A stretch of DNA of 19,442 bases, taken from positions 1 through 19,442 of IMG/VR virus record IMGVR_UViG_2609459832_000003; one strand, 5' to 3'. The notes beneath the pieces were generated by a model. It had not been told where the DNA came from. It did not search any database and saw nothing but the letters and a program-made list of their open reading frames with translations. This DNA comes from a virus (taxonomy: Duplodnaviria; Heunggongvirae; Uroviricota; Caudoviricetes). A program made the translations under genes and the position numbers. Below are positions 1 through 19,019 of the stretch, one piece after another (position 1 is the first letter of the stretch; each line of letters starts with the position of its first letter).

Positions 1-582
1 CACTGTTCCACAGTACATATCACCCAGCATTAACGTGCCGGATGCACCCGATGAAAAAATATTGTTACCACCACCAATACTCACCTGAATTTTGTCAGTC
101 CGGTCATCTGATACATAAAACGATGTATTTCCAACTAATGAGCGGTTGCAGTACAGACTGGCTGAGACATAGCCGTTTTCGTTTCGCGTTGCGAAAATTT
201 CATAGTAATAACTGGCTGCTTCATCAGGATACGGGGTTGTAAATGAATAGCCATTAATCCTGATGTGGGATGGCGAAGATGAATATTTCTTTCCCGCACT
301 TAATGTCAGACGAAATCCCAGCTGTACAGCTGAGGCTTTTAAGTCCGGAAGTGTGCTGTACAGTGTGACATATGAGGGTGTCGTAAAAATCAGCCCCGTT
401 CTTTCTACAGTATTTACGGCCTGAGTGCCACGACAGACGGATGTTACAGAACCGGACATATCATTGATAAGCGTGACACCGTTTTCGTTCAGTGCTGAAA
501 TAATATTTGTTGAATAATAGTTCTCGCACAATCCCTCATTCGCCGGAATTTGTCGAAAACTTTCGAGTTTAATAATATTCAA
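1..582 (-). CDS. Partial CDS (N-terminal ~194 aa; gene continues past the window start): putative tail fiber / receptor-binding protein
   Basis: Minus-strand frame has no stop from 600 down to 1 (checked triplet by triplet). TTG start at 580-582 sits 6 nt after an AAGGAGAG Shine-Dalgarno and 24 nt after the stop of the upstream baseplate gene. Position right after the gp48-like gene is where Mu/P2-type clusters put the fiber. Missing from the ORF track because it has no ATG start and no stop in the window. G+C looks lower (~40-45% in sampled lines) than the rest of the tail operon. Confidence 0.45.
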   Translation of the reverse strand, partial: MNIIKLESFRQIPANEGLCENYYSTNIISALNENGVTLINDMSGSVTSVCRGTQAVNTVERTGLIFTTPSYVTLYSTLPDLKASAVQLGFRLTLSAGKKYSSSPSHIRINGYSFTTPYPDEAASYYYEIFATRNENGYVSASLYCNRSLVGNTSFYVSDDRTDKIQVSIGGGNNIFSSGASGTLMLGDMYCGTV

Positions 583-605
583 AGCGGCTCTCCTTTTATT
601 TTATG

Positions 606-1565
606 TCATTCGGACGTGACCACAGCAAAATGCAGTCCCGGGTGATTAATCAATAACGGTTCACGGGTTCTGCTGGCTGTCTGCAACTGCATACTGTTAA
701 CCGGTACGGGGGAGCGGGTCCTGTATCCCGTCTGCAACTGTGCGCTGTTCATGGTCATGGGGTCCGTTGTCGGCAGACCTGAGTGCAATTGCGCCCTGCT
801 GAGTACCAGTGGTTCTGCCATCGGACGGGCGGCATAAAAGTTAATCCGGTTAATTGTCAGCGGCTTACCTGTCAGTGCCGGAACAACCGCAAAATGAACA
901 CCTGTATGATTAATCGCTAATGGCTCAGTCGTCTTGTGTCCGGCCTGAAAGGAGAGGCTGTTTATAGTCAGGGCGGCTTGTTGCCCTTCACCAGACTCAT
1001 CCGGATATGCAAAAAGGACAACAGTATGCGACGGACATAATTTATTAATCACGCACTCCGCAACCGTATCACCCCACGTCCGGATCGGTGTGTTACAGGT
1101 GTCCGAACATGTCTGCCACTGAGCACCGGCATCCACCGGCAACGTCACACGCCAGAAATAACGCCAGCGATCACCCCATTCCGGATCGGGGCTTGCATCC
1201 AGGTGCTGGAACTGTTCGATCGTCACGCCGGTATATCCCAGCGCCTCAAGCTGCTCCAGGAAGAACTGCTCATTTATGCCACCAGCCACATTGGCTTTTG
1301 CTTCCAGCCGTTGCTGACGCTGGCGTAATGTCTGGGCTCCAACAGGAGAGCAGGTGTCAGGTAAACCATACAATTCTTCATAACGTTCAATCAGCTCTGT
1401 TGACTGACCAGGATCGATTTCAGCCATCAGTTCATCAGCCCGCTGATGAACACGTACAAGCGATGGTGCCAGACCATCAAGCACGCCGTCGGTATCGCTC
1501 CATGCAGGCCCCGGCGGCATCAGTCCGTACAGCAGCTTTGTATAATCATCCTGTAACGAATCCAT
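606..1565 (-). CDS. Baseplate protein, Mu gp48 / P2 gpI-like (DUF2313-type N-terminal domain) with a repeat-containing C-terminal extension
   Basis: N-terminus (MDSLQDDYTKLLYGLMPPGPAWS...ELYGLPDTCSP) matches the DUF2313/YmfQ-type proteins that follow baseplate J in Mu-like tails. Start overlaps the stop of the J-like gene (TAATG at 1563-1567). At 319 aa it is longer than typical ~190-aa homologues. Confidence 0.7.
   Translation of the reverse strand: MDSLQDDYTKLLYGLMPPGPAWSDTDGVLDGLAPSLVRVHQRADELMAEIDPGQSTELIERYEELYGLPDTCSPVGAQTLRQRQQRLEAKANVAGGINEQFFLEQLEALGYTGVTIEQFQHLDASPDPEWGDRWRYFWRVTLPVDAGAQWQTCSDTCNTPIRTWGDTVAECVINKLCPSHTVVLFAYPDESGEGQQAALTINSLSFQAGHKTTEPLAINHTGVHFAVVPALTGKPLTINRINFYAARPMAEPLVLSRAQLHSGLPTTDPMTMNSAQLQTGYRTRSPVPVNSMQLQTASRTREPLLINHPGLHFAVVTSE
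621..928. repeat. Imperfect direct repeats inside the 3' end of the gp48-like gene
   Basis: A ~45-bp imperfect direct repeat at ~621-664 and ~884-928 (shared core tgattaatc) encodes EPLLINHPGLHFAVV / EPLAINHTGVHFAVV. Three ~25-bp units at 681-704, 732-754 and 778-804 (ctgcaactg...) encode the xxAQLQTG-like motifs. Confidence 0.6.
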
Positions 1566-2647
1566 TATTTACTCCTTGCCGGGTCATAAGCCTGCCAGGT
1601 GATCTCGCCGAGCACCGGAAGCTCGGTCTCCCCCAGGTCAATATCCGATGAAGGGACGATTAACCGGTGGGCCACTTCACCAGCAGACAAACTGATGGCC
1701 TCACTGATTCTGGACAGATACATACGCCCCTCTGGCACACCATCCCGTAACATCAGTGCATTCAGCTCTGCTTTTATTGCAGTCCTGATCTGCGGTGTGT
1801 CTTTCGATAATGCAATCGTCATCGGGATGACTTTTTCTGTGGCACCGAATACATACAATCCGCTTCCGGCAACCGGTGTCAGAGGAAGAATGTGCTCTCT
1901 GACTGCATTAATGACGCTTTCATCCGGAGCCGGATGTTCCGGATCGTTTGTCGCCACCATCACCCCTACCGTTCCTATTCCTCTCCAGTGACGGTATGTC
2001 CATGCGCGCGTAATACCAGGCACTTCTTTAGCCCAGACGACATAATCCCCGTCAGCCCCGCCCTGAGGCGTCCAGTAATACCGCTCAATGACGCGGGCGC
2101 GCCACGTTTCCAGATCTTCAGTATCGAATCCGCCGGTCAGGGTATCAGCCACACCGGACGACGGCAGACCATTCACCGGCGTGACCAGGATTAATGCCGT
2201 ACCGTCGTCAGCATTACCGACCGCACCTGCAGTTGAGCAGGCGATCGGCACGCGCAGGACACCACCGGAGCTGGTTGCATCGGCAGTTGCTGTGTACTGA
2301 ACCAGGTCATCGCGCTGAATAACACTCCCGGCGGTCACCTTCAGGTCATCGCTGACATCTTCCCAGCGCATATACCCGCTGGCAGCCGTGGCCCCCTTGC
2401 GCGGACACCGTTTCATCGCAGCATGTCGCGCCAGCCAGGATTCATCACACCGGTCAGGCAGTATGTTCATTGCCAGATAATCGATGTAACCGTAAACCGT
2501 ATGCAGCGCCGCCGCATACACTTTTGCCCGCACGTCTTCATCCATGCGCCGGAGTGGGTCACTGACGTCCAGCCTGGCGAATAAATCGTTACGGAGCATA
2601 CTGATATTTTCTGCCAGCGTCGGGCGCTGAAACTCACTGTCCGCCAT
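1565..2647 (-). CDS. Baseplate J-like protein (Mu gp47 / P2 gpJ family)
   Basis: 360-aa ORF in the expected position between gp46-like and gp48-like genes, overlapping both neighbours. Size and synteny fit the baseplate J family. Confidence 0.8.
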   Translation of the reverse strand: MADSEFQRPTLAENISMLRNDLFARLDVSDPLRRMDEDVRAKVYAAALHTVYGYIDYLAMNILPDRCDESWLARHAAMKRCPRKGATAASGYMRWEDVSDDLKVTAGSVIQRDDLVQYTATADATSSGGVLRVPIACSTAGAVGNADDGTALILVTPVNGLPSSGVADTLTGGFDTEDLETWRARVIERYYWTPQGGADGDYVVWAKEVPGITRAWTYRHWRGIGTVGVMVATNDPEHPAPDESVINAVREHILPLTPVAGSGLYVFGATEKVIPMTIALSKDTPQIRTAIKAELNALMLRDGVPEGRMYLSRISEAISLSAGEVAHRLIVPSSDIDLGETELPVLGEITWQAYDPARSK

Positions 2648-3062
2648 GCGTTATCGCACTCCACAGATTATCAAAAGAAATCATTACCGGTCCGTCACGC
2701 CGCCAGAGAGTGATACTGTTACCCAGTTCATTAATCCCGGTGCGGCGGATATCCAGATCAATACGGGACACCACACCGTCATCAATCATCCATTGCAGGC
2801 ATTCGCGGATATACCCCCTTACCGTCTGCACCAGCTGATTTGTCAGTTTGCTGCGCTGAAGCAGCCACAGCCGGGAGCCGTAACGGTCATTCTGTACCGC
2901 AGGCCAGGTATCCCCCCACCATCCCATCGGGACGTCGGCGTTGTCATCAGGCTCCGCCCGCCGCCAGGTGAACAGGGAGATCACCACGGAGCGGGTCAGC
3001 GGATCCAGCGGTGCGCTGGCACTGGTGCGTTTGCCGTTCACCGTCAGCCACAGTTCCATCAT
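2634..3062 (-). CDS. Mu gp46-like baseplate protein (GP46 family, gp25/gpW-like wedge)
   Basis: 142-aa ORF between the spike (gp45-like) and baseplate J genes. ATGA overlap with the upstream gene at 3059-3062. Confidence 0.7.
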   Translation of the reverse strand: MMELWLTVNGKRTSASAPLDPLTRSVVISLFTWRRAEPDDNADVPMGWWGDTWPAVQNDRYGSRLWLLQRSKLTNQLVQTVRGYIRECLQWMIDDGVVSRIDLDIRRTGINELGNSITLWRRDGPVMISFDNLWSAITHGGQ

Positions 3063-3607
3063 GCCTCCATCGCTTTATCAGGTTTGTCGGTGTTACTGCC
3101 CTGACCGTTATCTCTGTGACGATGCCCGTTATAGGCAAGCCGCATCGCTGACATGGTGGTGCCGCCGGAGTCGCACAGGTCTTTCACCTGTCCTGTCACT
3201 TCCAGGTCCATTTCAAAACGTGCTTCAGGTGCATTGCGAAACGTGATCGTTTTACCTGCACCGTCCACCACGATCCCCTCCCGGGTCAGCGTCAAGGACT
3301 GCCCCTGATCGTCATAGACAGCCACCTCACCCGTCTTCAGCCCTTTCAGGCGGTAGCGCCGATCCGACACCGTAACAACCACCGCATGAGAACGGTCGCC
3401 ATCCGGAAACAACACCACCGCTTCCGCACCGCTGTTTGCGCTTGCGGTAAAACCGTAGGGTTCAAGATGTTCAACCCCGGCTTTGGGTTCACCGGCAATC
3501 AGGGACACATCCACGGTCTGACATTTCGTGGCGGCACTGATGCTTTTCACCACGGCCCGACCAATCAGGCCGAGGAGTTGTCGCTGCATGACTTCAATCG
3601 TCCTCAT
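3059..3607 (-). CDS. Baseplate assembly protein V-like / central spike (Mu gp45 homologue)
   Basis: 182-aa ORF, synteny gp44-gp45-gp46. Size fits the phage baseplate assembly protein V family. Confidence 0.7.
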   Translation of the reverse strand: MRTIEVMQRQLLGLIGRAVVKSISAATKCQTVDVSLIAGEPKAGVEHLEPYGFTASANSGAEAVVLFPDGDRSHAVVVTVSDRRYRLKGLKTGEVAVYDDQGQSLTLTREGIVVDGAGKTITFRNAPEARFEMDLEVTGQVKDLCDSGGTTMSAMRLAYNGHRHRDNGQGSNTDKPDKAMEA

Positions 3608-4686
3608 CAGAACGGGTCCTCCTGTACTCTGGCTTTTTTCTTTTTCCGCGCGCCGGGAGCCTCGGGTTCAGGCAGATAAGCATCAGGCGGGCCGACACGG
3701 ATTTCCGTCAGGGTGCCGTTCTGGTCCTGAGTAAACGTGACTTCCGAGACAAGCAGTTCGGTATTGTCGAAACCACAGACCGGATCAAAGACAATCACCC
3801 GCTGGTTGGGCTGCCACAGCGTACCGTTACCCTGTCGCCAGCCCTGCACCACATAGGTGGTTTCATCCGTCCGCGCCGCCCGTTGTCGGGCTTCAAAGTC
3901 AGCACGGGCAATACAACCTGCCCCCGTAGCCTGCCCTGTCTGCCTGATATACATCGGACGGTAACGGGCAATAAATGCGTCCTCTGTGCGGGCCCTCAGC
4001 GCGGTGGTGGTGGCCTCACCGAAATCATCGTCGTTTCCGGCACGCTGCCCCGCCACCTGGTAAACAGAAAACCGCTCCCGGACACTCTTCTCCGTATCGC
4101 AGGAAAGGATGTTTTCCCCGAGCACCAGCGCAGTATGCGCCCGCGTTGAGCCAATACCGCCAATCACCAGCCTGCCGTGCGGGTCGTCGTAAGCCAGTGC
4201 CTGCTGCTGACCGAGTATTTTGTTGATTACCTCAATCACCGTTTCACCATGATCGGGCTGGACGTCAGGAATAACACCCGACGGCGCACCGCTGTTCACC
4301 ACCTCAATGCCGAAGGGCGCAGCAAGCGCCTGCGCAATCTGTACCAGCGATCGTCCGTTAAACTGTGTCGGTTCGGCTGCACAGTCAATCAGGTCAGCAG
4401 TCAGACTACGTCCGGCAATACCGGTGCTGACCGAACGGGCATCGTAACGAACGGGGGTCGCCTCCACCCAGCCGGTGATCACCAGTTCATCACCAATCAG
4501 CACCTCCACTTTTGAACCGTTTTTAATGCGCGGCTGAAGCGTGGTGATACCCTCACCCCCCGGCCACTGGCGGGTGATCTCCACACTGAAATCCCGTGCC
4601 AGCCGTTCAATACCGGCACCGATGCGCACCGATGTCCAGCCATTCCACTCCCGGCCATTTACCCGTAGCGTGACATTGTCGTTCAT
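3607..4686 (-). CDS. Tail/baseplate hub protein (Mu gp44 'P' / P2 gpD-like)
   Basis: 359-aa ORF immediately after the DNA-circulation gene (ATGA overlap at 4683-4686), as in Mu gp43-gp44. Confidence 0.7.
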   Translation of the reverse strand: MNDNVTLRVNGREWNGWTSVRIGAGIERLARDFSVEITRQWPGGEGITTLQPRIKNGSKVEVLIGDELVITGWVEATPVRYDARSVSTGIAGRSLTADLIDCAAEPTQFNGRSLVQIAQALAAPFGIEVVNSGAPSGVIPDVQPDHGETVIEVINKILGQQQALAYDDPHGRLVIGGIGSTRAHTALVLGENILSCDTEKSVRERFSVYQVAGQRAGNDDDFGEATTTALRARTEDAFIARYRPMYIRQTGQATGAGCIARADFEARQRAARTDETTYVVQGWRQGNGTLWQPNQRVIVFDPVCGFDNTELLVSEVTFTQDQNGTLTEIRVGPPDAYLPEPEAPGARKKKKARVQEDPF

Positions 4687-6011
4687 TGCACTGGCACCTT
4701 CAGAGGGATCACCGGCACAAAGCCGGGATGCGTAATGGCATTACGCCGGATAATGTCCTCGTCACGCGCCGCGTTATCAAACCAGGTCGCCGCCAGCACC
4801 AGCGCGGGTAAAACCTCATCCGGTGTGCGCTGAATGATCCGTGCAGACTGTTCAAGGCGCGTGTTGATATCCGCATTCAGATCTGCTTTCACCCGGCGCA
4901 GCGCCAGAAACAGCGCATCACTGGTTGTACGGGACAACTCCTTATCAATTGCCGTATTCAGTGTGTCGCGAATGTCGGTCAGTTCTTCCCACGTCGGCAG
5001 GTCAACCGTGTTTTTCACCGCCGGTGCATTGTTCAGTGCCGGATGCGTGACGGAAGGCCAGCCAGTGCTCTGCGCAGGTGTTGTTGCCTGCCCCACTGTG
5101 GCATTCTGCATCACTGCGGAAGTTGTTGGCGCAGGCAATCGGGTGACGGCATACGCCGCTTCGCTGATTGCGGTCGTACGAAGGGTGCTGGCAACCACGT
5201 TACGCTGCTGCGTCGCCGTGGCGGTAGTTTTACTGTCCGTTTTCCAGATGCCGCGCGGTTGCAGATCGCTGCCGAGGCTGACACCGGAAAGCGTTTTGAT
5301 CATGGTGACAAGGTCGCTGGCGTTACCATAAAGGCGTTTCCCGGTACGCCACATTTTCTGCACCTGCTCAACGAAATTTTTGCCTGACGATGGTGGCGGC
5401 AGAAGTACCGAGATATCCCCCTGCAACAGCCTGGCAGCATCCGATACGGCAGAATCCACCACTTTCATCGCATCAGAAACATACCCAAGCATTGTGCTGG
5501 CATTACCTACGACGTCGTTCTGCACAAAATCTGCCACGCCATCGATACTGAAACCACTGAAGCTGTCACTGATGCAGTCATCCAGTGCAGAACAGGATGA
5601 CATCAGCGTCTGCGCCGTCGCCGCACCTGAAGTGGGGTAAGAGAGTTCTCCCGCTTCGACAAACTTCAGGTCAAAGCGGACAATACGCCCTTCGCTCTTC
5701 GATGTGCTGACCCGAACCTCCCCGTCAACACAGACTTTCAGCTCACCGTATGTCGGATGGACAAGCGTGCCGGGACCGGGTTTATTCAGCGCGTCAATCA
5801 GGCGATCGCGCTGGTCAAAGCAGTCATCTCCCACCACATAAGCCGTGATGGACGGGCGGAAAGTGATTTTCCCCAGGTCTTCGGTATAGGGTTTGTCACG
5901 GTTCGGGTATTCGTGCGTTTCCACACGACGACCGGTTCCCGCACTTTCTTCTTCAACCTTAAACGGCACGCCGCGAAATGACGCGTCCTGAAGTCTGTCT
6001 TTCCACGTCAT
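4683..6011 (-). CDS. DNA circulation protein (Mu gp43 'N' family)
   Basis: N-terminus MTWKDRLQDASFRGVPFKV...GRRVETHEYPNRDKPYTEDLG matches the conserved DNA-circulation N-terminal domain. 442 aa. GGAG Shine-Dalgarno 6 nt upstream of the ATG at 6011. Confidence 0.8.
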   Translation of the reverse strand: MTWKDRLQDASFRGVPFKVEEESAGTGRRVETHEYPNRDKPYTEDLGKITFRPSITAYVVGDDCFDQRDRLIDALNKPGPGTLVHPTYGELKVCVDGEVRVSTSKSEGRIVRFDLKFVEAGELSYPTSGAATAQTLMSSCSALDDCISDSFSGFSIDGVADFVQNDVVGNASTMLGYVSDAMKVVDSAVSDAARLLQGDISVLLPPPSSGKNFVEQVQKMWRTGKRLYGNASDLVTMIKTLSGVSLGSDLQPRGIWKTDSKTTATATQQRNVVASTLRTTAISEAAYAVTRLPAPTTSAVMQNATVGQATTPAQSTGWPSVTHPALNNAPAVKNTVDLPTWEELTDIRDTLNTAIDKELSRTTSDALFLALRRVKADLNADINTRLEQSARIIQRTPDEVLPALVLAATWFDNAARDEDIIRRNAITHPGFVPVIPLKVPVQ

Positions 6012-6026
6012 ATAAACTCCGGATAC

Positions 6027-6082
6027 AAAAAACCCGCCAAATCTGCTTTGTCAGTTATTTACAGCGCAGAAGATGTGGCGGG
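6027..6082 (-). terminator. Rho-independent terminator at the 3' end of the AT-rich moron
   Basis: On the minus strand, CCCGCCA (rc of 6076-6082) pairs with UGGCGGG (rc of 6033-6039), with further AUCU/AGAU pairing inside, followed directly by U6 (rc of the A-run 6027-6032). It lies 20 nt after the moron stop codon and just before the gp43 ribosome-binding site. Confidence 0.6.
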
Positions 6083-6101
6083 AATCTAATATTTTTAATT
6101 A

Positions 6102-6596
6102 CTATCTGAGTTGAACATCAATGGAATAAACATCACCACTCTTTATAAATTTAGAATCTGTCCTTTCATCAAAAGATTCAAATGACTGTACATTTAAAAA
6201 CTTTTTCATTTTATTTTCAAAAATACTTTCATTAACACCAGTTAAATATTTGAATGCTCTACCAGCAAGGACCTCATTACTTAAATCCATTGTGTTTTTA
6301 TTGTCTTTGAAAAACCAAACAATAACCTTTTGTGGGCATGATGGATTATAAACAGATATATAAAACTGCGGCTCATATTTTTCATCAGCATCATCACTGA
6401 GCATTTCTTCAGAAGATAATTCTCTTCTGAATTCATATTGCCGCTTAGTGATTCCTTCATCCTTTATTATCTCTTGCTTAACTGGTGCAATACCTATAGA
6501 AGAGATTAATTCTGACTCATTAAAGTTGAACTTACACTCTTCCGCAGCCAAGTTAAAAGATAAAAGTGCAGATATAAAAAAAACAAAGATACGCAT
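6102..6596 (-). CDS. Hypothetical secreted (signal-peptide) protein of unknown function, encoded by an AT-rich moron
   Basis: Complete ORF, stop at 6102. Longest ORF starts at 6614 (MIEGMIM...), but the ATG at 6596 has a GAAGGG Shine-Dalgarno 6 nt upstream and gives a textbook signal peptide: MR + IFVFFISALLSF + NLA/AEE. Very AT-rich codon usage unlike all neighbours. Two Cys in the mature part. No family recognised from memory. Confidence 0.7.
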   Translation of the reverse strand: MRIFVFFISALLSFNLAAEECKFNFNESELISSIGIAPVKQEIIKDEGITKRQYEFRRELSSEEMLSDDADEKYEPQFYISVYNPSCPQKVIVWFFKDNKNTMDLSNEVLAGRAFKYLTGVNESIFENKMKKFLNVQSFESFDERTDSKFIKSGDVYSIDVQLR

Positions 6597-6626
6597 AATC
6601 ATCCCTTCAATCATTTGTAAGGAATG

Positions 6627-6658
6627 ATTATATTAACTACTTAAAGCTGAAAAGCCAA
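6627..6658 (-). promoter_or_regulatory. Candidate sigma70-type promoter for the moron gene
   Basis: On the minus strand: TTGGCT (rc of 6653-6658), 17-nt spacer, TAATAT (rc of 6630-6635), overlapping a perfect TATAAT (rc of 6627-6632). Sits in the 81-bp AT-rich gap between the tape-measure stop and the moron ORF. Predicted start site would give a ~25-nt leader to the 6596 ATG. Confidence 0.35.
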
Positions 6659-6695
6659 ATCATGCCAGACAAAAACACATTAATCATTTTGTACA

Positions 6696-8528
6696 CTACC
6701 TGAACCGCGTATAGCCAACATCATGGCTGACATCAAAACCGCTGGATCGCGTTTCCATAACCCGCATACCCGGAGGCGAATTCACAAAAGAGACCTTGAT
6801 CTCACCATCAACTTTTGGCACAAAAGCTTTGTTAATCATGAAGGGATTCGGGCCTGTGGCATCGGAGGCGTTGTTTGACTGAGCCGGATCTACCGCCGGA
6901 TAAGGTGTGTATCCCCGCGCCGGTATTCCCGTCCCATAAGCATCATAAGCACCCGCGCCCCACTGCGCAGAGTTAATGGCATCGACCGTGTCACCGGAAC
7001 TGTCGGTAAACCACTCAATAATGGGCTTCAGCTTGTCCCACATATCCTGAAACCACTTAACAACCGGCCCCCAGTTATTGATCACCATTCCCAGCGGCGA
7101 CCAGGCAAAAACTTTCTTAAGGAGTTCCCAGCCAGCCTCAAAATAAGGACCAATGGTTTCCCAGAGCTTCTTAAAATAAGGTCCGACAACATCCCAGTTA
7201 GTGATAATTAATCCCGCAGCCAGAGCAATCGCCGTCGCAATCATGCCAATCGGCGTCATCGACATGATCCTGCTGACAATACTGATGGCACCGCCCACGC
7301 CCATCAATCCCAGTTTCAGAATCGCAAGACCGGCAGCAAGCCCGACGATGCCGCGAATAACCCGGGGATTTTCATCCGCAAACTTCGTGAATTTTTCCCC
7401 CAACTCCCCCAGCCATTGCGTGATATTTTTGGCGTCACCAGAAAATGCGCCGCCAATAGCCGCAAGGCCGTTAGTTGCGGTCCCTGTCATTGCCTCCCAC
7501 AGATTGGACAGCGTACCAAGCTGTGCCTGAACACGTTTATTCAGGCTGGCCTGTTTATTCATCTTCTGCTGGATCTGATCGTAACCATCCTTTCCTTTAT
7601 CGATCAGAGCATTGACCACCTGAAGGGTTTCGGCATCATCACCAAATATTGCCTTAAGTACACCTGTTCGCTTAACGTCGGTCAGTTTTCGCAGCTTTGC
7701 CAGTTGCTTAAACATGTTATCAAGACCGCCAAAACTCCCTTTGCCGTCAGTAAAATCGAGCTGCACTCCGAGTTTCTGGCGGGCCATGACTTTATTGACG
7801 TCCCTGATTTTCTTAACGCTTAATCCGGACTGGATAACTTTTCGCAGGGCGTTACCTGCCGACTCCCCGTTCATCCCCATCTGATCCATCATGACGCTGA
7901 TGGGGGCAAGGCTCTGTGCAGCCTGAAGACCGTCCTTGTTCACCATCTTCAGAACAGAGCTGGTTTTAGTGAAGAAGGACAACATGTTGGTATCGTCAAC
8001 GCCCAGATAAAACGCCTTCTGGATAGTGTCGAACAGCCCCATCATGTCTTCTGACGCCGTTCCGGTAGCATCCTGCATCTTTGCGGCAAACTCGGCAGCC
8101 GCTTCCGGTGTTTTTTTCAGTTGTACCGCAAGATAAGCTGTCGCTTTACCCACACCGCCAAGAATGTTTTCTGCCGGGATCCCCTGACGCACCAGCATCT
8201 GCATCATGTTCTGGAAATCAGCCGTTGTACCGGGTAGCTGGTTACCCAGGCCAATAGCCAGTTTATTGATGTCCTGAAAGCGCTTTCCAACCTCGCCGTT
8301 CGCATCCATCATGGCGACTTTCAGCCCGGTGGCGGCGTTTTCCTGATCGGCATAAGATTTCAGGGAAAGCGTCAAACCCGCTGCCAGTCCGCCACCAAGC
8401 GCCAGCCCACCCTGTGACGCTTCTTCCGCCTGGCGTTTAAATCCCCGGATTTTCTTTTGCATTTTCGACAGCGCGGGAGAAAGCCTGTCGACACCGGTGA
8501 TCAACGCCTTAAGCTCAAATTCAGCCAT
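6696..8528 (-). CDS. Tail tape measure protein
   Basis: 610-aa ORF after the chaperone/frameshift pair. Central hydrophobic stretch and periodic aromatic residues (NWDVVGPYFKKLWETIGPYFEAGWELLKKVFAW...WFQDMWDKL) are typical of tape-measure proteins. Gly/Ala-rich. Confidence 0.85.
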   Translation of the reverse strand: MAEFELKALITGVDRLSPALSKMQKKIRGFKRQAEEASQGGLALGGGLAAGLTLSLKSYADQENAATGLKVAMMDANGEVGKRFQDINKLAIGLGNQLPGTTADFQNMMQMLVRQGIPAENILGGVGKATAYLAVQLKKTPEAAAEFAAKMQDATGTASEDMMGLFDTIQKAFYLGVDDTNMLSFFTKTSSVLKMVNKDGLQAAQSLAPISVMMDQMGMNGESAGNALRKVIQSGLSVKKIRDVNKVMARQKLGVQLDFTDGKGSFGGLDNMFKQLAKLRKLTDVKRTGVLKAIFGDDAETLQVVNALIDKGKDGYDQIQQKMNKQASLNKRVQAQLGTLSNLWEAMTGTATNGLAAIGGAFSGDAKNITQWLGELGEKFTKFADENPRVIRGIVGLAAGLAILKLGLMGVGGAISIVSRIMSMTPIGMIATAIALAAGLIITNWDVVGPYFKKLWETIGPYFEAGWELLKKVFAWSPLGMVINNWGPVVKWFQDMWDKLKPIIEWFTDSSGDTVDAINSAQWGAGAYDAYGTGIPARGYTPYPAVDPAQSNNASDATGPNPFMINKAFVPKVDGEIKVSFVNSPPGMRVMETRSSGFDVSHDVGYTRFR

Positions 8529-8703
8529 GTGTGCGTTTCTCCTGCTCTATCCTGTTTGCCTGACTGACCAGCAAGGGAATTTCACTGATCGGCATATTCA
8601 GCAATTCGAAGGGATTAATGCGCCAGTAGCTGGCGCAGTCAAAGAAGCGATCAGTGAGGTATTCAGCCGTCAGGCCTGGAGGAAAAAACCAGCCACAAGC
8701 CAC
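8521..8703 (-). CDS. -1 frame C-terminal extension of the tail assembly chaperone (expressed as a fusion by programmed frameshift, not as a separate gene)
   Basis: ORF in the -1 frame relative to the chaperone, overlapping its last ~11 codons and ending 5 nt before the tape-measure ATG. Slippery heptamer at the overlap (see 8682-8688). Confidence 0.65.
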   Translation of the reverse strand: MACGWFFPPGLTAEYLTDRFFDCASYWRINPFELLNMPISEIPLLVSQANRIEQEKRTHG

Positions 8704-8939
8704 GCCGCTGCATTCAGGTCTGCCGGAGACATCTGGTCGACAGAGCTTTGCGGCACTTTCGCCAGCCGCACAATGTATTTCGACACCACATGCGCCAGAA
8801 GTCTGACGGACTCATCCTGATTCATCTGGTAGGGATACCCCAGCTCGCGGACATCCTTCCCGGTGGGCTCATCAAACTCCAGTACGGAGAGTGTCTCGCC
8901 ATGAGCAGTAATCGGTTTCTTTAACTCAAGCTCTTTCAT
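8670..8939 (-). CDS. Tail assembly chaperone (lambda G-like role; Mu gp41-like position)
   Basis: 89-aa ORF between tube and tape-measure genes. Start overlaps the tube stop (TAATG at 8937-8941). Ends 3 codons after a slippery site. Confidence 0.7.
   Translation of the reverse strand: MKELELKKPITAHGETLSVLEFDEPTGKDVRELGYPYQMNQDESVRLLAHVVSKYIVRLAKVPQSSVDQMSPADLNAAAWLVAGFFLQA
8682..8688 (-). promoter_or_regulatory. Programmed -1 ribosomal frameshift slippery heptamer T_TTT_TTC
   Basis: Minus-strand sequence GCU GGU UUU UUC CUC CAG GCC UGA. The zero-frame codons TTT TTC form an X_XXY_YYZ heptamer; a -1 slip reads TTT TTT CCT CCA GGC... into the 8521-8703 ORF. Confidence 0.65.
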
Positions 8940-9295
8940 TACTGGTAATCCCCTTCTTCACCGTGGAACTCAAGATCAACCGTGCCTTCTTCGGCATTAT
9001 GGTTCGCTTCGCCGTGCAGCCAGGCAGACGACAGTACATAGACCTGACCGTTCGCCAGCTCGGCAGTGATGGTCATCTCATCAGACGAGGTGATTTTGCC
9101 CACCGGAAAATTCTTCGGCACCTTGAAGGTCCCTTTGACATAAGGCGCACGGTGAGTTTCCTTGCGGTCCACTGAACCGTCCAGGCCGATGATGTCATCA
9201 TTGACCGTCCTGTTCATGGGCACCTCAATGCCGCCGGTCAGCGATAGCTGCTGACCGTCAATTTTGAAATAACAGGTTCCCCCGATACGGGCCAT
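8939..9295 (-). CDS. Tail tube protein (contractile tail; Mu gp40 'M'-like)
   Basis: 118-aa ORF immediately after the sheath gene (TAATG overlap at 9293-9297). Size and synteny. Confidence 0.75.
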   Translation of the reverse strand: MARIGGTCYFKIDGQQLSLTGGIEVPMNRTVNDDIIGLDGSVDRKETHRAPYVKGTFKVPKNFPVGKITSSDEMTITAELANGQVYVLSSAWLHGEANHNAEEGTVDLEFHGEEGDYQ

Positions 9296-10791
9296 TATGC
9301 AGACTCCTCTGAATACTGAAGACGGAACTGGTTAACCACGGCAAAGACACGCAACTGGTTAACATAGTCAGGCGGGAACAGCGTGTTCAGGCGATTTGGA
9401 TCGCTGGCATCACGCTCCACAACCAGGTACTGCTTGAACAGTTCGTAGTTTTCCACGATCCCCGCACGCTCGAGCTGACGGTAGGTTGCCAGCAGTTCCC
9501 CTTTGATCACCGCCGGGGTGACAATCGCCTGACCGGGACCAAAGCGGGTACCGTCACTGGCAAGCTTGTGACGCCCGTACTTACTGGTAATGACGGATTT
9601 CAGTTTGCGCAGTACATACGCACTGGTATGCAGCGTCTCGCTGTCGAGGTAGCTGTTATCCGCAACCCCGTAAGCGTTTTTCCTGTACGTGGTGACATCA
9701 CGCTGAATGCGCAGCACCCCGCTTTCGACATACGCCGTTGCCACGCCATGAGACAGCAGGGTCTGCTGCTCGGTCATCGTGAACCGTTTCCCCTTCGGCG
9801 CAGGCAGCATACCCACCAGCTCACCGGTCTGCGTGGGACGTGCCGGATCGTTGCGGATAAACACTGCCGCGCGGGCGGTACGGCTGGCTGCCAGCTCGTC
9901 GGCAGGCGTCTGGGGGTCTTTTTCGTACCCCGCCAGGGTAATGTGCTGCTGGTTAAACTGGTCACCTGCGGTCACCAGTTCTGACAGCGTGCCGGTCTTT
10001 GCCGTATACACATGACCATACAGCTGACGCGCATAGCTCCAGCGACCGCTGGTATCGTTCATCTCGGTCACCAGCGTGTTAACGGAGGCCGTGTCGCTGA
10101 ACGGCAGGCCGATATAATCAAACGGCTCATCCGCCATTGCAGCCACCGCGCCGGTGAGAACAGGAGCGCCCGTTCCGGCGGTACCCGTCGCCACGGCAAT
10201 CTGTACGCCCGCTGGCAGCACTTCGCCCCCACCAAAGCCGTAGTAATTGAGGCTGACAGGAATTTCATTCCCGCAAAGCCCCTTATGACGCGCGGTCAGT
10301 GTGACCACGCCTGCCGAAGATGAAGCCGTAAACGGCAGGGTCGGAACGGCATTGATGGCATCCTGGATACTGCTGGCAATCATCGTGACGTTATCGCCGT
10401 TAGTCACCGGTGCCTGCACGCGGGTACGTCCCACATACACATTCACCGTGCCGGTTTCGGTTGCCGCCCCGGTCACCGTCAGCGTAACCGTTGCCGCCGC
10501 GCCTGTGGATTCAGGAACGGCAATCACATACAGCTCGCCAAACGGGTCAGTCTGGCGATAAGCCTCGACCATACGCGCCAGCTGACTTCCCGCACCACAA
10601 ATCTGGCGTGCATAGTCTGCCGACGGCATCAGTACCAGACTGTTGGCAACAATCTCTGCACCGTTATTGGCATGACCAATCAGCAGCGATGCTCCGCTGT
10701 CCTGTGCAGTATTCGCCGCCTGGTTATCCATTTCCGCATAAAACAACGGAACCAGCGTATTCGACGGAATGGTGTTAAAGCTTATCGTCAT
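9295..10791 (-). CDS. Tail sheath protein (contractile tail; Mu gp39 'L'-like)
   Basis: 498-aa ORF followed by tube, chaperone and tape measure. Size and synteny characteristic of myovirus sheath proteins. Confidence 0.85.
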   Translation of the reverse strand: MTISFNTIPSNTLVPLFYAEMDNQAANTAQDSGASLLIGHANNGAEIVANSLVLMPSADYARQICGAGSQLARMVEAYRQTDPFGELYVIAVPESTGAAATVTLTVTGAATETGTVNVYVGRTRVQAPVTNGDNVTMIASSIQDAINAVPTLPFTASSSAGVVTLTARHKGLCGNEIPVSLNYYGFGGGEVLPAGVQIAVATGTAGTGAPVLTGAVAAMADEPFDYIGLPFSDTASVNTLVTEMNDTSGRWSYARQLYGHVYTAKTGTLSELVTAGDQFNQQHITLAGYEKDPQTPADELAASRTARAAVFIRNDPARPTQTGELVGMLPAPKGKRFTMTEQQTLLSHGVATAYVESGVLRIQRDVTTYRKNAYGVADNSYLDSETLHTSAYVLRKLKSVITSKYGRHKLASDGTRFGPGQAIVTPAVIKGELLATYRQLERAGIVENYELFKQYLVVERDASDPNRLNTLFPPDYVNQLRVFAVVNQFRLQYSEESA

Positions 10792-10945
10792 CGGTATTCA
10801 CCTTTTTATTCACGCGCCGGATATCACCCGCTGCTTCACGGCGCAGCCAGTAGTTGTTCTCGTCAACATTTCGCCCTTCGGCGGGCAAAAGGTCGCCGCG
10901 GGCAGGGTCAGGCACTGACCGCCCTTTAACAGGTTTGACAAACAT
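10775..10945 (-). CDS. Small conserved pre-sheath protein (56 aa; recalled as DUF2635-like)
   Basis: Not in the ORF track (below 60 aa). ATG at 10943-10945 with GAGGA 5 nt upstream; stop TAA at 10775-10777 overlaps the sheath start. Translation MFVKPVKGRSVPDPARGDLLPAEGRNVDENNYWLRREAAGDIRRVNKKVNTDDDKL resembles, from memory, small proteins found upstream of sheath genes in Mu-like tail clusters. Confidence 0.5.
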   Translation of the reverse strand: MFVKPVKGRSVPDPARGDLLPAEGRNVDENNYWLRREAAGDIRRVNKKVNTDDDKL

Positions 10946-10953
10946 GAGGATCC

Positions 10954-11514
10954 TCAGGAAGGAAGGGTTATTACGGTGTGATGTTCGATATCGCCGTCAG
11001 GCCCGTTACCGGGCTCGAGATAATCAACATCAATCGCCAGCGTTTGCAGTTCATCCAGACTGTTCAGATCATCCTGCTGGCGGGTATCGTCTTCAGTCAG
11101 CTCGCTGATGACCGAAAAATCGAACTGATAAATCAGCTCATGACGATTCAGATCCAGCAGCGTGCCGCCGTCATAGGTAATCGGGTTACCGCACGCTTCC
11201 GGGTTCCAGCCCAGCAGGGCCTTAAAGAGCATCTGCCGGACATCGTCCACCACATCATACGAGGCAAACTGACCGCGCTCATCACGCCCGTTACTCAGTA
11301 TGACAACCACGGAGAAGGCCTCTTTCAGCTCCTGCCAGTAGTCGGTCTGGCTTTTGTTTTCTCCCGGAGAGTCATCCCCCGGTACCACATACGCCGCCGG
11401 GAGTCTCAGCTTTCCGACCTCCGGCAGATTTTTGAACTGTGCCGCGCCTGCCACCCGGTTTTCAAAACACGGGCAGCGAGCACGCAGCGCAGCAATAACA
11501 GGCGTCAGTTTCAT
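10954..11514 (-). CDS. Virion/tail-completion protein (Mu gp37 / DUF1834-like)
   Basis: 186-aa acidic ORF between the head-tail joining genes and the pre-sheath/sheath genes. ATGA overlap with the upstream gene. Assignment rests mainly on synteny. Confidence 0.5.
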   Translation of the reverse strand: MKLTPVIAALRARCPCFENRVAGAAQFKNLPEVGKLRLPAAYVVPGDDSPGENKSQTDYWQELKEAFSVVVILSNGRDERGQFASYDVVDDVRQMLFKALLGWNPEACGNPITYDGGTLLDLNRHELIYQFDFSVISELTEDDTRQQDDLNSLDELQTLAIDVDYLEPGNGPDGDIEHHTVITLPS

Positions 11515-12017
11515 CTGCGTCGTCGCTCCGGCTTCAGTGATTTACGTAATTCCCGCGCCAGAAAATAGCGTGTCCAGCTGCGGTTCTTTTCAAGCGTTTC
11601 CACCATAAAGTTATTACGTGGAGCCAGCCGCCAGCCGCTGCCACCGGATGCACCACGATGATGACTACGACGACGTTTTGCTCCTCCCCGGACACCAAAA
11701 AACAGAAACGCCGGATAGAAGTCACCAGAGATCATCCGGTTCCCCTTCCCGTTGCGCTGGTTAGGGGCAATGCGTGTCATAAAACCGGCTCGCTTTTTAC
11801 TGGCTCTCGGCACCATATAACCAATCGAACGAGCCAGGCGTCCGGTCTGATAACCGGGGTTTTCACCCGGTGCCGACCGCGCACGGCGCATCACCAGCCG
11901 TCGGGCATCACGCATATGACGCTGACCAATCGTGACAAACGCCCGCCGGACACGGGCGCGGTTAAAGCGCATCTCCGCGGGCTGCTGAACATCAACGTGC
12001 AAAAAGGAAGTCGCCAT
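11511..12017 (-). CDS. HK97 gp10-family head-tail joining / virion morphogenesis protein
   Basis: 168-aa very basic ORF following the head-closure gene. Position and size fit the HK97 gp10 family. Confidence 0.55.
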   Translation of the reverse strand: MATSFLHVDVQQPAEMRFNRARVRRAFVTIGQRHMRDARRLVMRRARSAPGENPGYQTGRLARSIGYMVPRASKKRAGFMTRIAPNQRNGKGNRMISGDFYPAFLFFGVRGGAKRRRSHHRGASGGSGWRLAPRNNFMVETLEKNRSWTRYFLARELRKSLKPERRRR

Positions 12018-12402
12018 TGTTGCCTCCGTGACTCTGCGTAAATTCGCCCAGCTCCGTACACTCCAGCAGCAGAAAGCGCCGCGCCCCGTTCAGATCACGC
12101 TGACGTTTCACCCGGTACACACTGTCATCACAGACCACCTCATAATCAGCAGTGATCCCCCGGCGGTAACGAATGGTGATGTAATGGGTGATGGCGTCCC
12201 CGGTCTGCGCGGTTTCCTGCCAGGTGGTGGCACTGGTCTGGATAACCTTCGCCCATGTCCGGAACGTAACCGGGTATTGAGGCTCCACGCCAAAGTTATC
12301 CGCGGGCATATCCACCCGCTGGCGGAGCAGGACGCGTTTATTCAGTTCGCCGGGGTCCGGCAGCATGTAGGTTGCGCTGGTCTGCGCCTGACGAATTTTC
12401 AT
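11992..12402 (-). CDS. Head closure / head-tail adaptor protein
   Basis: 136-aa ORF directly after the gp6-like connector gene (ATGA overlap at 12399-12402). Synteny of the HK97-type head-tail joining set. Confidence 0.55.
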   Translation of the reverse strand: MKIRQAQTSATYMLPDPGELNKRVLLRQRVDMPADNFGVEPQYPVTFRTWAKVIQTSATTWQETAQTGDAITHYITIRYRRGITADYEVVCDDSVYRVKRQRDLNGARRFLLLECTELGEFTQSHGGNNGDFLFAR

Positions 12403-12722
12403 TGCGGAAAGTACCTGTACGGGCCGACAAGCCAGCCAAAACTCTGCGGCATGTCGAGTTTCTCCACTTCCGTAACCGACGAGCGGTTTTCGTAAAAATG
12501 GCTGATAAGCATCAGCATCCCCAGACGAATATCATCCGGCAGGTGCAGCCCGTCCGGATCGCTGTCCGGAATGGATTCATCCGGTGCATAGAGCTTCCGG
12601 TTCAGATACGTTTCCGTCCGCTTTTGCGCCGCACAGGCCAGCAGTTGCAGATGGCGGTCATCAGCATCGAAATCCTCATCCAGCCGGAGTTGGGCTTTAA
12701 TCTCTTCCATTGTCAGAAGCAT
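12399..12722 (-). CDS. Head-tail connector protein (gp6-like)
   Basis: 107-aa ORF (MLLTMEEIKAQLRLDEDFDADD...) downstream of the capsid gene. Size and position typical of gp6-like connector proteins. Confidence 0.6.
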   Translation of the reverse strand: MLLTMEEIKAQLRLDEDFDADDRHLQLLACAAQKRTETYLNRKLYAPDESIPDSDPDGLHLPDDIRLGMLMLISHFYENRSSVTEVEKLDMPQSFGWLVGPYRYFPQ

Positions 12723-12724
12723 AC

Positions 12725-12925
12725 TCAGCTCTCTTTACTGGTCGTGGCTTTTTTCTCTTTTGCCGCTTTACTGCTTTTTGCACTGGTTCCGCGCTCAGCT
12801 AACCCGGCCTGAAGTGCAATCTCCTGCACCCGGGCAGGAAGCGCCCCGTCGTCATACTCACCGGCCCGAATGACCTCAACACGCATACCGTCCGGTGACC
12901 ATTTCAGATCTTGTTTCAGGATCAT
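12725..12925 (-). CDS. Small hypothetical protein with a Lys/Ser-rich C-terminal tail
   Basis: 66-aa ORF between the major capsid and connector genes. Stop overlaps the next start (TGAGTATG). No family recognised. Confidence 0.4.
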   Translation of the reverse strand: MILKQDLKWSPDGMRVEVIRAGEYDDGALPARVQEIALQAGLAERGTSAKSSKAAKEKKATTSKES

Positions 12926-12947
12926 GATTCTTCACCCGTCAGAACAG

Positions 12948-12967
12948 GGGGCGCGGTTCCGCGCCCC
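12948..12967 (-). other. GC-rich hairpin just downstream of the major capsid gene
   Basis: GGGGCGC (12948-12954) / GCGCCCC (12961-12967) inverted repeat with a 6-nt loop, 8 nt after the capsid stop codon. No U-run follows. Confidence 0.5.
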
Positions 12968-12974
12968 TGAATGA

Positions 12975-14180
12975 TTACGCCGCTGCAATCTTCAGCAGTT
13001 TGATGGCCTGCGAATCGACCAGCATCCCGCCGGTGCGCTTGGTGGTATAAAAACCGACAAACGGTTTATTGGTGTACGGGTCACGCAGAATGCGGGTGCC
13101 GATACGGTCAACGATGGTGTAACCCCGTTTGAAGTTACCAAATGCAATGGCTTTCGCATCAGCGGCGATATCCGGCATCTGTTCGTTTTCAGCGATACCG
13201 TAACCCGCCAGAGAGGACGGCTGCCCCAGCTCCAGCCCCGGACGCCACAGATAGTTACCCTCGCTGTCTTTCAGCAGACGGATGGCAAACAGGCTGTTGT
13301 TGTTCATCATGAACTTCGCGCCAGTGCGGTGTGCCTTACGCAGCGTGTAAATCAGTTTGATAATGGCGTCTGCGGTCACCGCAGTCGCTTCGCCGGATAC
13401 AATATGCTGAAGTTTGCCGAACGCCCGGACCTTGTCGGTTTCATCAGTGGATTCATACGCCAGGAACCCTTTCGGCTTCTTGGTGCCATCGCCTGAGGTA
13501 AAGGCAATTTCTTCCTGTTCGGCAAATTCGGTTGCCAGCTCGCTGTTGATCCAGGCCTCCACGTTGAAAAAGGCATCATCCAGCATTTTCTGGGTGGCCT
13601 GCGGGTTGCCGTAAATTTCCCCCATGAGAGGTTCAATCAGCTCCAGTCTGGAGGTGGCAGTCTGGGATCGCGTATCCGTTTCCCCCACCCATCCGGAAGC
13701 CGTACCGCCCAGATTCACCAGTTTTTTGTAGTCGGAACCGCCAACGGTGATCACCGTGGCTTCCTGACGCATCACCACTTCATCTTTCAGCAGGTTAAGA
13801 ATGTTGCGATCCAGTTCTTCCGGCACGGCGTAGCCACCGTCTTCATCGGTACCCACCTGCAATGCCTTACGCTCCAGATCGCGCAGACCGTCTTCACGGC
13901 CTTTACGCAGGAAGCCCACAAACGCCTCTTTATGCTCGGTGGCCAGTTTATTTTGCGCTCCACCAGCCGGACGTTTCAGCTCAAGCAGCTCTTTTTCAAG
14001 GTCGCTTTTGAGATTTTCCAGCTCGCTGAGTTTCCCGTTCAGGGTTTCCACCTGCCCGGCAAGCTTGCCTTTTTCCTGCTCAATCGCATCCACGCGCTTG
14101 TCGTTCTTTGCTTTGAAGTCGTCAAACTTCTGCTGCAGCTCCTGCGCGACCTGTTCGACATCTTTAATATCAACCGCCAT
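12975..14180 (-). CDS. Major capsid protein, HK97 family, with N-terminal coiled-coil delta (scaffold) domain
   Basis: 401-aa ORF. The first ~100 aa are highly charged and coiled-coil-like (QELQQKFDDFKAKNDKRVDAIEQEKGKL...LEKELLELK), followed by a capsid fold region. Sits directly after the prohead protease. Confidence 0.9.
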   Translation of the reverse strand: MAVDIKDVEQVAQELQQKFDDFKAKNDKRVDAIEQEKGKLAGQVETLNGKLSELENLKSDLEKELLELKRPAGGAQNKLATEHKEAFVGFLRKGREDGLRDLERKALQVGTDEDGGYAVPEELDRNILNLLKDEVVMRQEATVITVGGSDYKKLVNLGGTASGWVGETDTRSQTATSRLELIEPLMGEIYGNPQATQKMLDDAFFNVEAWINSELATEFAEQEEIAFTSGDGTKKPKGFLAYESTDETDKVRAFGKLQHIVSGEATAVTADAIIKLIYTLRKAHRTGAKFMMNNNSLFAIRLLKDSEGNYLWRPGLELGQPSSLAGYGIAENEQMPDIAADAKAIAFGNFKRGYTIVDRIGTRILRDPYTNKPFVGFYTTKRTGGMLVDSQAIKLLKIAAA

Positions 14181-14194
14181 CGTATTTCTCCTGA

Positions 14195-14845
14195 TTAGAA
14201 GTTCAGATTTTTCAGTGCATTCAGTGCAGAACCCACATCCTCAGCGTCGCGCAGGGACAGTGCGCCATAGCCCCCGGCCATGAATGCTTTGGCCTGGGTA
14301 CGGGAGAGTCCGACATCACGCAGGACTCTTTCGATTTTTTTCTGTTCGGGGATTTCCCCGCGGGCCAGTGCGTTCTTGACGTCGCTGATCCGCGCCTCGT
14401 CGTTAGACGGGAACGTCACCAGGCTGACTTCCCAGAGGTCGATTTCTTTCAGCAGAAAGGCTTCTTTGCTCCGGTCGTATTCCCAGTCTTTCAGGACGTA
14501 CCCAATAGAAAGGCCGGTTAACGAACCGGCCTTCATGTGTGCATGTGCGCGTTTTGCGAGGGGATCATCATCAATAAGCAACCGTCCCCTGACGTAAAGC
14601 CCGACATCGTCTTCCTTCATTTCGGTGTAAACACCGATGGGTTCATCCATGCGGTGCTGCCAGAGCAGCGCAGGTAACGCTTTTCTGTCACTCCACGCCC
14701 GCAGGGAAGCAGCAAATGCCCCGGACATCACCACATCATCGTGGCTGTCCTTTACACCAAAGACGGAGCCATACCCTTCAAACTCACCGGAGTCACTGAC
14801 AGATTTCAGACTCAGCGGTACATCAAGACGTTGTTTCGTCTGCAT
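14195..14845 (-). CDS. Prohead maturation protease (HK97 family)
   Basis: The ORF extends to 14881, but the ATG at 14843-14845 has an AAGGA Shine-Dalgarno 8 nt upstream and avoids a 59-nt overlap with the portal gene. Sequence ...SGEFEGYGSVFGVKDSHDDVV... is typical of HK97-type proteases. Confidence 0.85.
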   Translation of the reverse strand: MQTKQRLDVPLSLKSVSDSGEFEGYGSVFGVKDSHDDVVMSGAFAASLRAWSDRKALPALLWQHRMDEPIGVYTEMKEDDVGLYVRGRLLIDDDPLAKRAHAHMKAGSLTGLSIGYVLKDWEYDRSKEAFLLKEIDLWEVSLVTFPSNDEARISDVKNALARGEIPEQKKIERVLRDVGLSRTQAKAFMAGGYGALSLRDAEDVGSALNALKNLNF

Positions 14846-16246: not shown

Positions 16247-16257
16247 AATTACCTCAG

Positions 16258-18482: not shown

Positions 18483-18532
18483 ATGCGGCACTCCTGGTTA
18501 AATTTCATTTTTCGCGGGTATAAAAAAACGAT

Positions 18533-18581: not shown

Positions 18582-18607
18582 TCCCCTCTGTCAGTGGGAA
18601 CTGATTC

Positions 18608-18958: not shown

Positions 18959-19019
18959 TGGAATCTCCTTAATACCGGCATTATCGCAGCCCCTCACTGA
19001 AGGGCTGCTGTAATGCCTG

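Follow-up and report, generated by a model that had tools for sequence, protein, structure and literature searches.

In this study we focus on a small gene embedded among the tail genes of a temperate bacteriophage, within a stretch of 19,442 nucleotides that was analysed as a whole and is called here the window (positions 1 to 19,442 of the IMG/VR record IMGVR_UViG_2609459832_000003). The window corresponds to the late (structural) part of a temperate, SfV/SfII-like phage whose contractile tail is of the Mu type, and all genes of the window lie on the minus strand. A prophage that Escherichia coli UTAK-3 carries at the ydfJ (Qin) site matches it with 100% identity, and Shigella phages SfII, SfI, SfIV and SfV are ~97% identical to it over most of its length. 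The gene is accessory and lies at a junction between two tail genes that is a hot spot for such cargo in E. coli prophages; its product is predicted to be exported to the periplasm. An earlier reading of the same sequence, hereafter the original prediction, had described it as a moron for a secreted protein with a candidate superinfection-exclusion or host-fitness function, which is a reasonable hypothesis. The elements of the locus are as follows (aa, amino acids; nt, nucleotides).

6696..8528, minus strand: gene for the tail tape-measure protein (TMP; PF10145), 610 aa, upstream neighbour of the cargo gene.
6033..6705, minus strand: approximate extent of the DNA unlike cargo-less SfII (~670 bp here against ~50 bp in SfII).
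6627..6632, minus strand: perfect -10 hexamer TATAAT, 30 nt 5' of the ATG, with a poor best -35 (TTTTCA, at 15-nt spacing); a candidate promoter only.
6602..6608, minus strand: Shine-Dalgarno (SD) motif GAAGGGA, read from the sequence, 6 nt 5' of the ATG at 6596.
6597..6614, minus strand: six in-frame upstream codons (MIEGMI) of a 170-aa open reading frame (ORF), with no SD and missing in homologues.
6102..6596, minus strand: the cargo gene, encoding a 164-aa precursor (RefSeq WP_032220455.1, 'hypothetical protein'; PHROG 8976), with its stop codon TAG at 6104-6102.
6543..6596, minus strand: predicted Sec (signal peptidase I) signal peptide, residues 1-18 (MRIFVFFISALLSFNLAA, then EEC), recognised by its n-, h- and c-regions and the -3/-1 rule.
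6534..6536, minus strand: codon of Cys21, at position 3 of the mature protein and conserved without exception in the signal-peptide-bearing members.
6336..6338, minus strand: codon of Cys87, invariant in the whole family and presumed disulfide partner of Cys21.
6027..6082, minus strand: hairpin CCCGCCA...TGGCGGG followed by T6, intrinsic-terminator-like, directly 5' of the gp43 ribosome-binding site (RBS; GGAG, 6020-6017).
4683..6011, minus strand: gene for the DNA-circularisation protein (Mu gp43/N-like; PF07157, DNA_circ_N), 442 aa, downstream neighbour of the cargo gene.

The ORF at 6102..6614 on the minus strand was confirmed, with 170 codons counted from its first ATG. Translation more likely starts at the third ATG (M7, 6596..6594), because an SD stands 6 nt upstream of it, the alignment to PHROG 8976 begins at residue 7 (residues 7-170 against positions 1-164 of the 164-position profile, E = 3.6e-106), RefSeq gives the 164-aa form, and the homologues all begin at the Met equivalent to M7. 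The MIEGMI codons are probably untranslated. PHROG 8976, itself annotated as of unknown function, is the sole family matched.

The guanine-cytosine (GC) content of the gene is 31%, against 52-59% in its neighbours. At this composition the expected stop frequency is ~0.078 per codon, and 170 open codons would occur by chance with P ~1e-6. Moreover, nonsynonymous change is far rarer than synonymous change between homologues (pN<<pS), and the 20 E. coli-type loci in IMG/VR carry 14 alleles with a dN/dS of 0.10-0.20, compared with 0.05-0.11 in the flanking genes. All 14 alleles are intact, and the pseudogene-only conservation that the original prediction had named as a sign against itself was not found. 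The gene is genuine, maintained and under purifying selection; positive selection was considered and rejected, as a dN/dS of 0.1-0.2 carries no signal of it. A reading of the gene as junk, either an ORF that hitch-hikes without function or an artefact of annotating AT-rich spacer DNA, could appeal to the lack of a known domain and to database names that are all 'hypothetical protein'. We give it practically no credence: beside the 164-170 open codons and the selection just described, length, signal peptide and Cys pair are kept in homologues down to 27% identity and the AlphaFold2 model is confident. Homologue conservation, pN<<pS and dN/dS together have effectively refuted it already.

The precursor begins with a basic n-region (MR), a hydrophobic core of ~12 residues and the residues L-A-A, all of which are retained by a start at M7. 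The signal peptide was scored by hand (n-, h- and c-regions, positions -3/-1) over 13 family members. In the 12 that bear a signal peptide (27-68% identity), the Ala at -1 is invariant and position -3 is A, V, S, I, L or T. This family-wide pattern favours cleavage at LAA/EEC, after Ala18. The Sec signal peptide of the original prediction is thus upheld, while its cleavage site, placed before AEE to leave ~145 aa, shifts by one residue; the predicted mature protein has 146 aa, a mass of 17.1 kDa and an isoelectric point of 4.8. The absence of a lipobox and the presence of two Cys had been noted originally and also hold: the motif [LVI][ASTVI][GAS]C is not found, the residues before Cys21 being A-E-E (family consensus A-E-Q), and the mature protein contains exactly two Cys, C21 and C87. 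We infer from these features that the protein is exported by Sec, cleaved after A18 and closed by a C21-C87 disulfide. This anatomy and localisation, a small exported periplasmic protein, is the part of our account in which we have high confidence.

In agreement with the original prediction, which had remarked on the lack of a recognisable motif, the protein matches no Pfam, NCBIfam or PADLOC (PADLOC-DB v2) model even at E<=10. AlphaFold2 gives a confident model (pLDDT 87, pTM 0.78), in which the signal helix is followed by a two-layer alpha/beta domain of seven strands and four helices. A Foldseek search of this model against the PDB returned nothing below E = 0.07, and there were no known exclusion proteins, lysozyme inhibitors or virion proteins among the top-ranked structure-search hits; the structural check that had been proposed gave a confident model and, among these hits, no match to a known virion protein. 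BFVD gave one protein of the same fold, from an uncultured siphovirus (TM-score ~0.6, 14% identity), whose automatic name is unreliable. A sequence profile search of the PDB yielded noise, the best hit being a mitoribosomal protein (E = 0.003 over 49 residues). The residues conserved in the family are mainly structural (P, G, F, Y and the two Cys), together with the polar residues E27, K45, R57, N107, T119, N128 and K152. Because the family alignment holds no conserved His/Ser/Asp constellation of the catalytic type, the protein would be a non-enzymatic binder rather than an enzyme.

The family is small, with 13 clusters among 5.8 billion proteins. An exhaustive profile search of 1.84 billion representatives gave 13 hits, one of which (P0024, a 1766-aa eukaryotic repeat protein) was rejected as a repeat-summed artefact, and repeating the search with a broader profile brought no further members. 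The family is confined to Enterobacterales and its members are named 'hypothetical protein' throughout. The hosts are E. coli, Shigella sonnei, Salmonella, many Yersinia species including Yersinia ruckeri, Kosakonia and Atlantibacter, in animal-, plant- and fish-associated niches. Two isolated phages carry the gene, Escherichia phage SKA5 (98% identity) and Pantoea phage AH07, from a tree leaf, as gene 16 (42% identity).

In every phage context examined (>40 loci, down to 27% identity) the gene lies between the PF10145 TMP and the DNA_circ_N gene, on the same strand. This is the case for 31 out of 31 loci with the gene in IMG/VR, and the same junction holds it in Kosakonia, a metagenomic enterobacterial contig, Atlantibacter, Yersinia, the loci L016/17 (27% identity), AH07 and SKA5. 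The homologous loci are all low in GC (31-41% in the gene against 47-55% in its neighbours). The divergence of the gene tracks that of the TMP, gp43 and hub genes, with Spearman coefficients of 0.68-0.87 in pairwise comparisons of seven diverged loci; the correlations among the flanks themselves are no stronger, at 0.80 (TMP with the circularisation gene) and 0.75 (TMP with hub). It evolves faster than the flanks, with a mean identity of 40% against 58-70%. Because of this position lock and co-divergence with the flanking tail genes, the gene appears to be an old co-inherited resident of the tail module rather than a cassette that hops freely. Two marks of a moron in the sense of Juhala and Hendrix, additional DNA and a deviant GC content, are present. 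The moron description in the original prediction thus stands in these two respects and needs revision in that the family is locked to one junction. The question raised there, whether the gene always sits in a tail operon, is answered positively for every phage-borne locus examined.

The sole non-phage homologue, P0020, is chromosomal (L014 / L015 5986-6471, 32-34% identity) and directly follows the terminator of a pertactin-type autotransporter gene, with a GC content of 37% against 52%. It shows no signal peptide from any in-frame start and has lost Cys21 too; this joint loss is consistent with a disulfide that would be needed only in the periplasm.

The gene is accessory and dispensable for the virion. 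Plaque-forming SfII, SfV, SfI and SfIV lack it, and SfII has no gene at all at the junction, where ~50 bp including the hairpin and U-run separate the TMP stop from the gp43 start. Among the ~1090 E. coli genomes matching the flanks, only 84-85 carry the gene, which is absent from ~92%. This bears on the possibility of a virion or tail-assembly component whose N-terminal hydrophobic segment would stay uncleaved, e.g. a tail-lumen 'pilot' protein entering the membrane on ejection. Such a role would suit a position between the tape-measure and hub-associated genes, the co-divergence with them and the tight operon packing in some phages. We regard it as very improbable, as functional phages with 97% identical tail genes do without the gene, an h-region of ~12-14 residues with a conserved AXA site after it is what cleaved signal peptides, and not transmembrane anchors, typically show, and the invariant Cys pair suggests an oxidising compartment. 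Furthermore, all structural genes have a GC content 20 points higher, and no structural match to virion proteins was obtained among the top-ranked hits.

To describe the junction in other genomes, we took an evenly spaced sample of 45 of the E. coli genomes matching the flanks. In 20 of the 45 the junction is empty as in SfII, which is the commonest state; the filled junctions hold this gene or one of at least four other unrelated genes of low GC content. The alternative cargos are the following.

L020: a 176-aa protein with an N-terminal membrane anchor (WP_000679481.1).
L021: a 225-aa lipoprotein with an LLGGC lipobox (WP_000866660.1).
L022: a 125-aa bPH_1 domain protein without signal (WP_001514801.1).
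L023/L024: a tRNA_anti-like OB-fold protein with an N-terminal transmembrane helix, on the opposite strand (WP_000734912.1).

Four out of the five cargo types are envelope-targeted. None of the alternative cargos has a match in PADLOC, and homology of the secreted family with the 176-aa cargo L020 was rejected (hhalign probability 0.8%). The TMP/gp43 junction of E. coli prophages, equivalent to positions 6012-6695 of the window, is therefore a cargo hot spot. Neither the gene nor the hot spot was described in any paper that our literature search found. In an Atlantibacter prophage (L009, 9980-11778), two extra genes (506 aa and 93 aa, without Pfam match) lie between the DNA_circ_N and hub (GpP-like) genes; this insert suggests a second cargo site one gene downstream.

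The original prediction had the gene expressed in the lysogen from its own promoter, which is unproven; the picture of an independent moron with a promoter and a terminator of its own needs revision. A consensus scan of positions 5900-6900 found no sigma-70 promoter, and the only candidate is the TATAAT at 6632-6627 with its poor -35. Hexamers resembling a -10 occur 30-34 nt upstream of the ATG in six out of seven diverged loci, and they were rejected as evidence of a conserved promoter: at short gaps they are codons of a conserved C-terminal TMP motif, DVGY(N/S/T)R. In the Yersinia, L016 and AH07 relatives the gene starts 13-16 nt after the TMP stop codon, and with so short a gap it is read there within the late tail operon.

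A GC-rich hairpin (CCCGC-tetraloop-GCGGG, extended in the window) and a U-run precede the gp43 RBS in every module examined, with cargo or without. The equivalents lie at 4064-4102 in L002 (SfII), 8496-8563 in L003, 8502-8540 in L005, 8496-8549 in L009, 6556-6620 in L012, 2656-2691 in L016 and 6472-6516 in L018. Because it is also found at the empty SfII site and in all these modules, we assign the hairpin to the tail-module backbone, rather than reading it as a terminator of the cargo gene's own; candidate roles are attenuation, mRNA stability or a landing pad for cargo. An Rfam scan over the whole window found no RNA family. A lambda-like Q antiterminator has been noted for SfIV (PMC3851460), and antitermination of this kind would explain how a terminator is tolerated inside a late operon.

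These transcription signals bear on two further explanations. In the first, the product would be a late periplasmic protein that helps the phage's own burst and has no role in the lysogen, through lysis timing, envelope breakdown or the masking of a receptor or secondary receptor, which might save progeny from being lost on debris, following a T5 Llp-like logic. The location on the same strand within the tail operon, with the 13-16 nt gaps of Yersinia, L016 and AH07, would suit such a helper, as would read-through of the downstream backbone hairpin by a Q-modified polymerase (Q noted for SfIV, PMC3851460) and the presence of the gene in the isolated phages SKA5 and AH07. A helper of this kind is unlikely in our view, given that most relatives dispense with the gene, that it is not near the lysis cassette, that its linkage is to the TMP and hub genes and not to receptor-binding fibre genes, and that it is intact in a prophage with structural genes flagged as frameshifted.

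The second explanation, which we judge unlikely to the same degree, is a host fitness or virulence role, comparable to that of lambda Bor/Lom or Gifsy-2 SodCI. A prophage-expressed periplasmic protein would here protect or adapt the envelope, as an inhibitor of a host-derived enzyme or as a stress protectant, and would have no part in phage-phage conflict. The perfect -10 hexamer upstream of the E. coli allele agrees with this, together with the accessory low-GC nature of the gene in a prophage and its export features. Moreover, in the UTAK-3 prophage the gene is intact although RefSeq flags several structural genes as frameshifted, and an ArtAB-like toxin pair is encoded at another place in that prophage. 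Against this stands the strict association with one junction in E. coli, Salmonella, Yersinia ruckeri, Kosakonia and a Pantoea phage; because these hosts span very different niches, a phage-centred role is favoured over a niche-specific one. The 13-16 nt gap in distant relatives is, in addition, too short for an independent promoter, other than one possibly placed inside the TMP 3' end.

Several other features of the UTAK-3 prophage were recorded. RefSeq flags its tail-terminator gene as frameshifted (window ~10954-11513; L001 25055-25614), a region in which the ORF list of the window shows an unbroken 186-aa ORF (10954-11514). The small-terminase gene is likewise flagged as frameshifted (window ~17987-18480; L001 32088-32581), as is a holin gene outside the window, and the YmfQ/Gp48 gene is flagged as truncated (window 981-1565; L001 15082-15666). 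On these flags the prophage may be defective, with the gene for the secreted protein intact nonetheless. Past the truncated Gp48/YmfQ gene, at the left end of the window (1-600), the GC content falls to 42-47%, and UTAK-3 has there two hypothetical genes in place of the usual tail-fibre genes (L001 12494-14683). The toxin pair lies outside the window, between the Q/DUF1133 region and the lysis genes (L001 35417-36635), and is annotated as a scabin-related ADP-ribosyltransferase and a subtilase-family AB5 binding subunit.

Known phage proteins that act at the envelope offer several points of comparison. HK97 gp15, a YebO-related moron product of the tail operon, blocks genome injection in a manner that depends on the tail region of the incoming phage (PMC3594210). 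Like gp15, the protein studied here is a small envelope-targeted accessory encoded in a tail operon beside the tape-measure gene, with deviant GC content and absent from close relatives. However, gp15 belongs to a siphovirus and sits in the inner membrane, whereas a cleavable signal peptide and a soluble globular domain are predicted here. There is no sequence relationship with gp15/YebO (no Pfam family at E<=10), and gp15 has many non-phage YebO homologues while nearly all members of the present family are phage-borne. For gp15, expression in the lysogen and an exclusion phenotype have been demonstrated; for our protein both are hypothetical.

T4 Spackle (gp61.3) acts in the periplasm, where it binds a tail-tip component of the superinfecting phage, the spike, stoichiometrically (PMC7677548, PMC7650644). 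It resembles our protein in being small, in carrying a signal peptide and in coming from a phage with a contractile tail. The two differ in that our protein has neither the Spackle fold nor a lysozyme-bearing spike as target. Indeed, the domain scan showed no lysozyme or peptidoglycan-hydrolase domain in the tail proteins of the window, and a Spackle-like lysozyme inhibitor was rejected on this ground. The superimmunity protein Sim of P1, a temperate contractile-tail phage, is reportedly (Maillou and Dreiseikelmann, in 1990) SecA-dependent, processed and exported, and is said to block infection after adsorption. Sim is larger (~25 kDa), is encoded elsewhere in the genome, and offers no structure or family model for comparison.

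Phage envelope proteins directed against superinfection and progeny loss also include Cor of phi80 and N15, the Cor genes lying in tail regions (PMC3594210), and T5 Llp, of the same receptor-masking class (PMC9586334). Llp and Cor are outer-membrane lipoproteins that bind FhuA, whereas our protein has A-E-E-C in place of a lipobox and no fold match; the alternative cargo L021, with its LLGGC lipobox, comes closer to this class. Finally, HXS acts through a periplasmic effector that blocks phage DNA entry (PMC13128918). It is a multi-gene bacterial system whose HxS-repeat peptide is matured by a radical S-adenosylmethionine (rSAM) enzyme, in contrast to the single globular protein without repeats described here. 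Our protein is thus an uncharacterised envelope-targeted prophage accessory protein, most like the gp15 type or the Spackle/Sim type and a member of none of them; it falls outside the gp15 and Spackle families because it shares neither sequence nor fold with them and differs in topology.

Taken as a whole, the data are best explained, in our tentative view, by a soluble periplasmic accessory protein that would block the entry of SfV/Mu-type tails. That it would do so as a non-enzymatic binder interfering with phage entry is a slightly more doubtful proposition. The 164-aa precursor would be exported by Sec and cleaved after Ala18, the Cys21-Cys87 disulfide probably stabilising the soluble protein in the periplasm. 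The gene would be transcribed with the late tail operon at the least, and members of the E. coli clade may have a weak promoter of their own in addition. In the periplasm, the protein would bind a component that incoming tails pass or deploy (TMP, gp43/N, the spike or a host partner) and such binding would block genome delivery. A lysogen or infected cell would in this way exclude superinfecting phages, and progeny would also be kept from futile ejection into cells already infected or lysing. Because the compartments are separate, export would allow the protein to be co-expressed with the tail genes without poisoning cytoplasmic tail assembly. Both the binding target and the exclusion phenotype are speculative.

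The arguments for a block of entry are circumstantial. They are the apparently ancient and exclusive linkage to one tail type, the ecologically diverse hosts, the envelope bias of the alternative cargo at the same junction (a lipoprotein and two membrane-anchored proteins), and the precedents of HK97 gp15 and T4 Spackle.

Several points weigh against this interpretation. No structural relative among known exclusion proteins came up in the top-ranked hits, nor any match in PADLOC or Pfam, and an arms race is not apparent in the dN/dS of 0.1-0.2. With no consensus promoter, expression in the lysogen is unsupported, and a gene expressed only late would not provide the classic exclusion that protects a lysogen. 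The position lock may stem from homologous recombination in the conserved flanks, which would exchange cassettes, and not from functional coupling. Finally, the cleavage is predicted from manual scoring of the sequence and the disulfide from the conservation of the Cys pair.

A bolder version of the entry-blocking proposal, which we consider somewhat unlikely, is that the protein would be the first representative of a class of soluble periplasmic 'gatekeepers' that is new and has an unseen fold. Such gatekeepers would bind the tape-measure, gp43 or spike complex of Mu/SfV-type contractile tails as these arrive, and so stop genome delivery. The junction would then be a dedicated hot spot for interchangeable envelope-acting exclusion factors, among them a secreted protein, a lipoprotein and membrane-anchored proteins.

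Prophage proteins that block entry shape phage infection of E. coli, Salmonella, Shigella and Yersinia, and bear on phage therapy and on prophage-driven evolution. Few of them have been characterised, and almost none is a soluble periplasmic protein. The gene described here is a clean and testable candidate: it is one small gene, with two isolated carriers (SKA5 and AH07) and close relatives that lack it (SfII and SfV). If it gave no phage phenotype, it would be one more conserved hypothetical prophage protein. The junction itself, with at least five interchangeable and mostly envelope-targeted cargos, may outweigh the gene in importance, as a defined place to mine for phage factors that act on the envelope.

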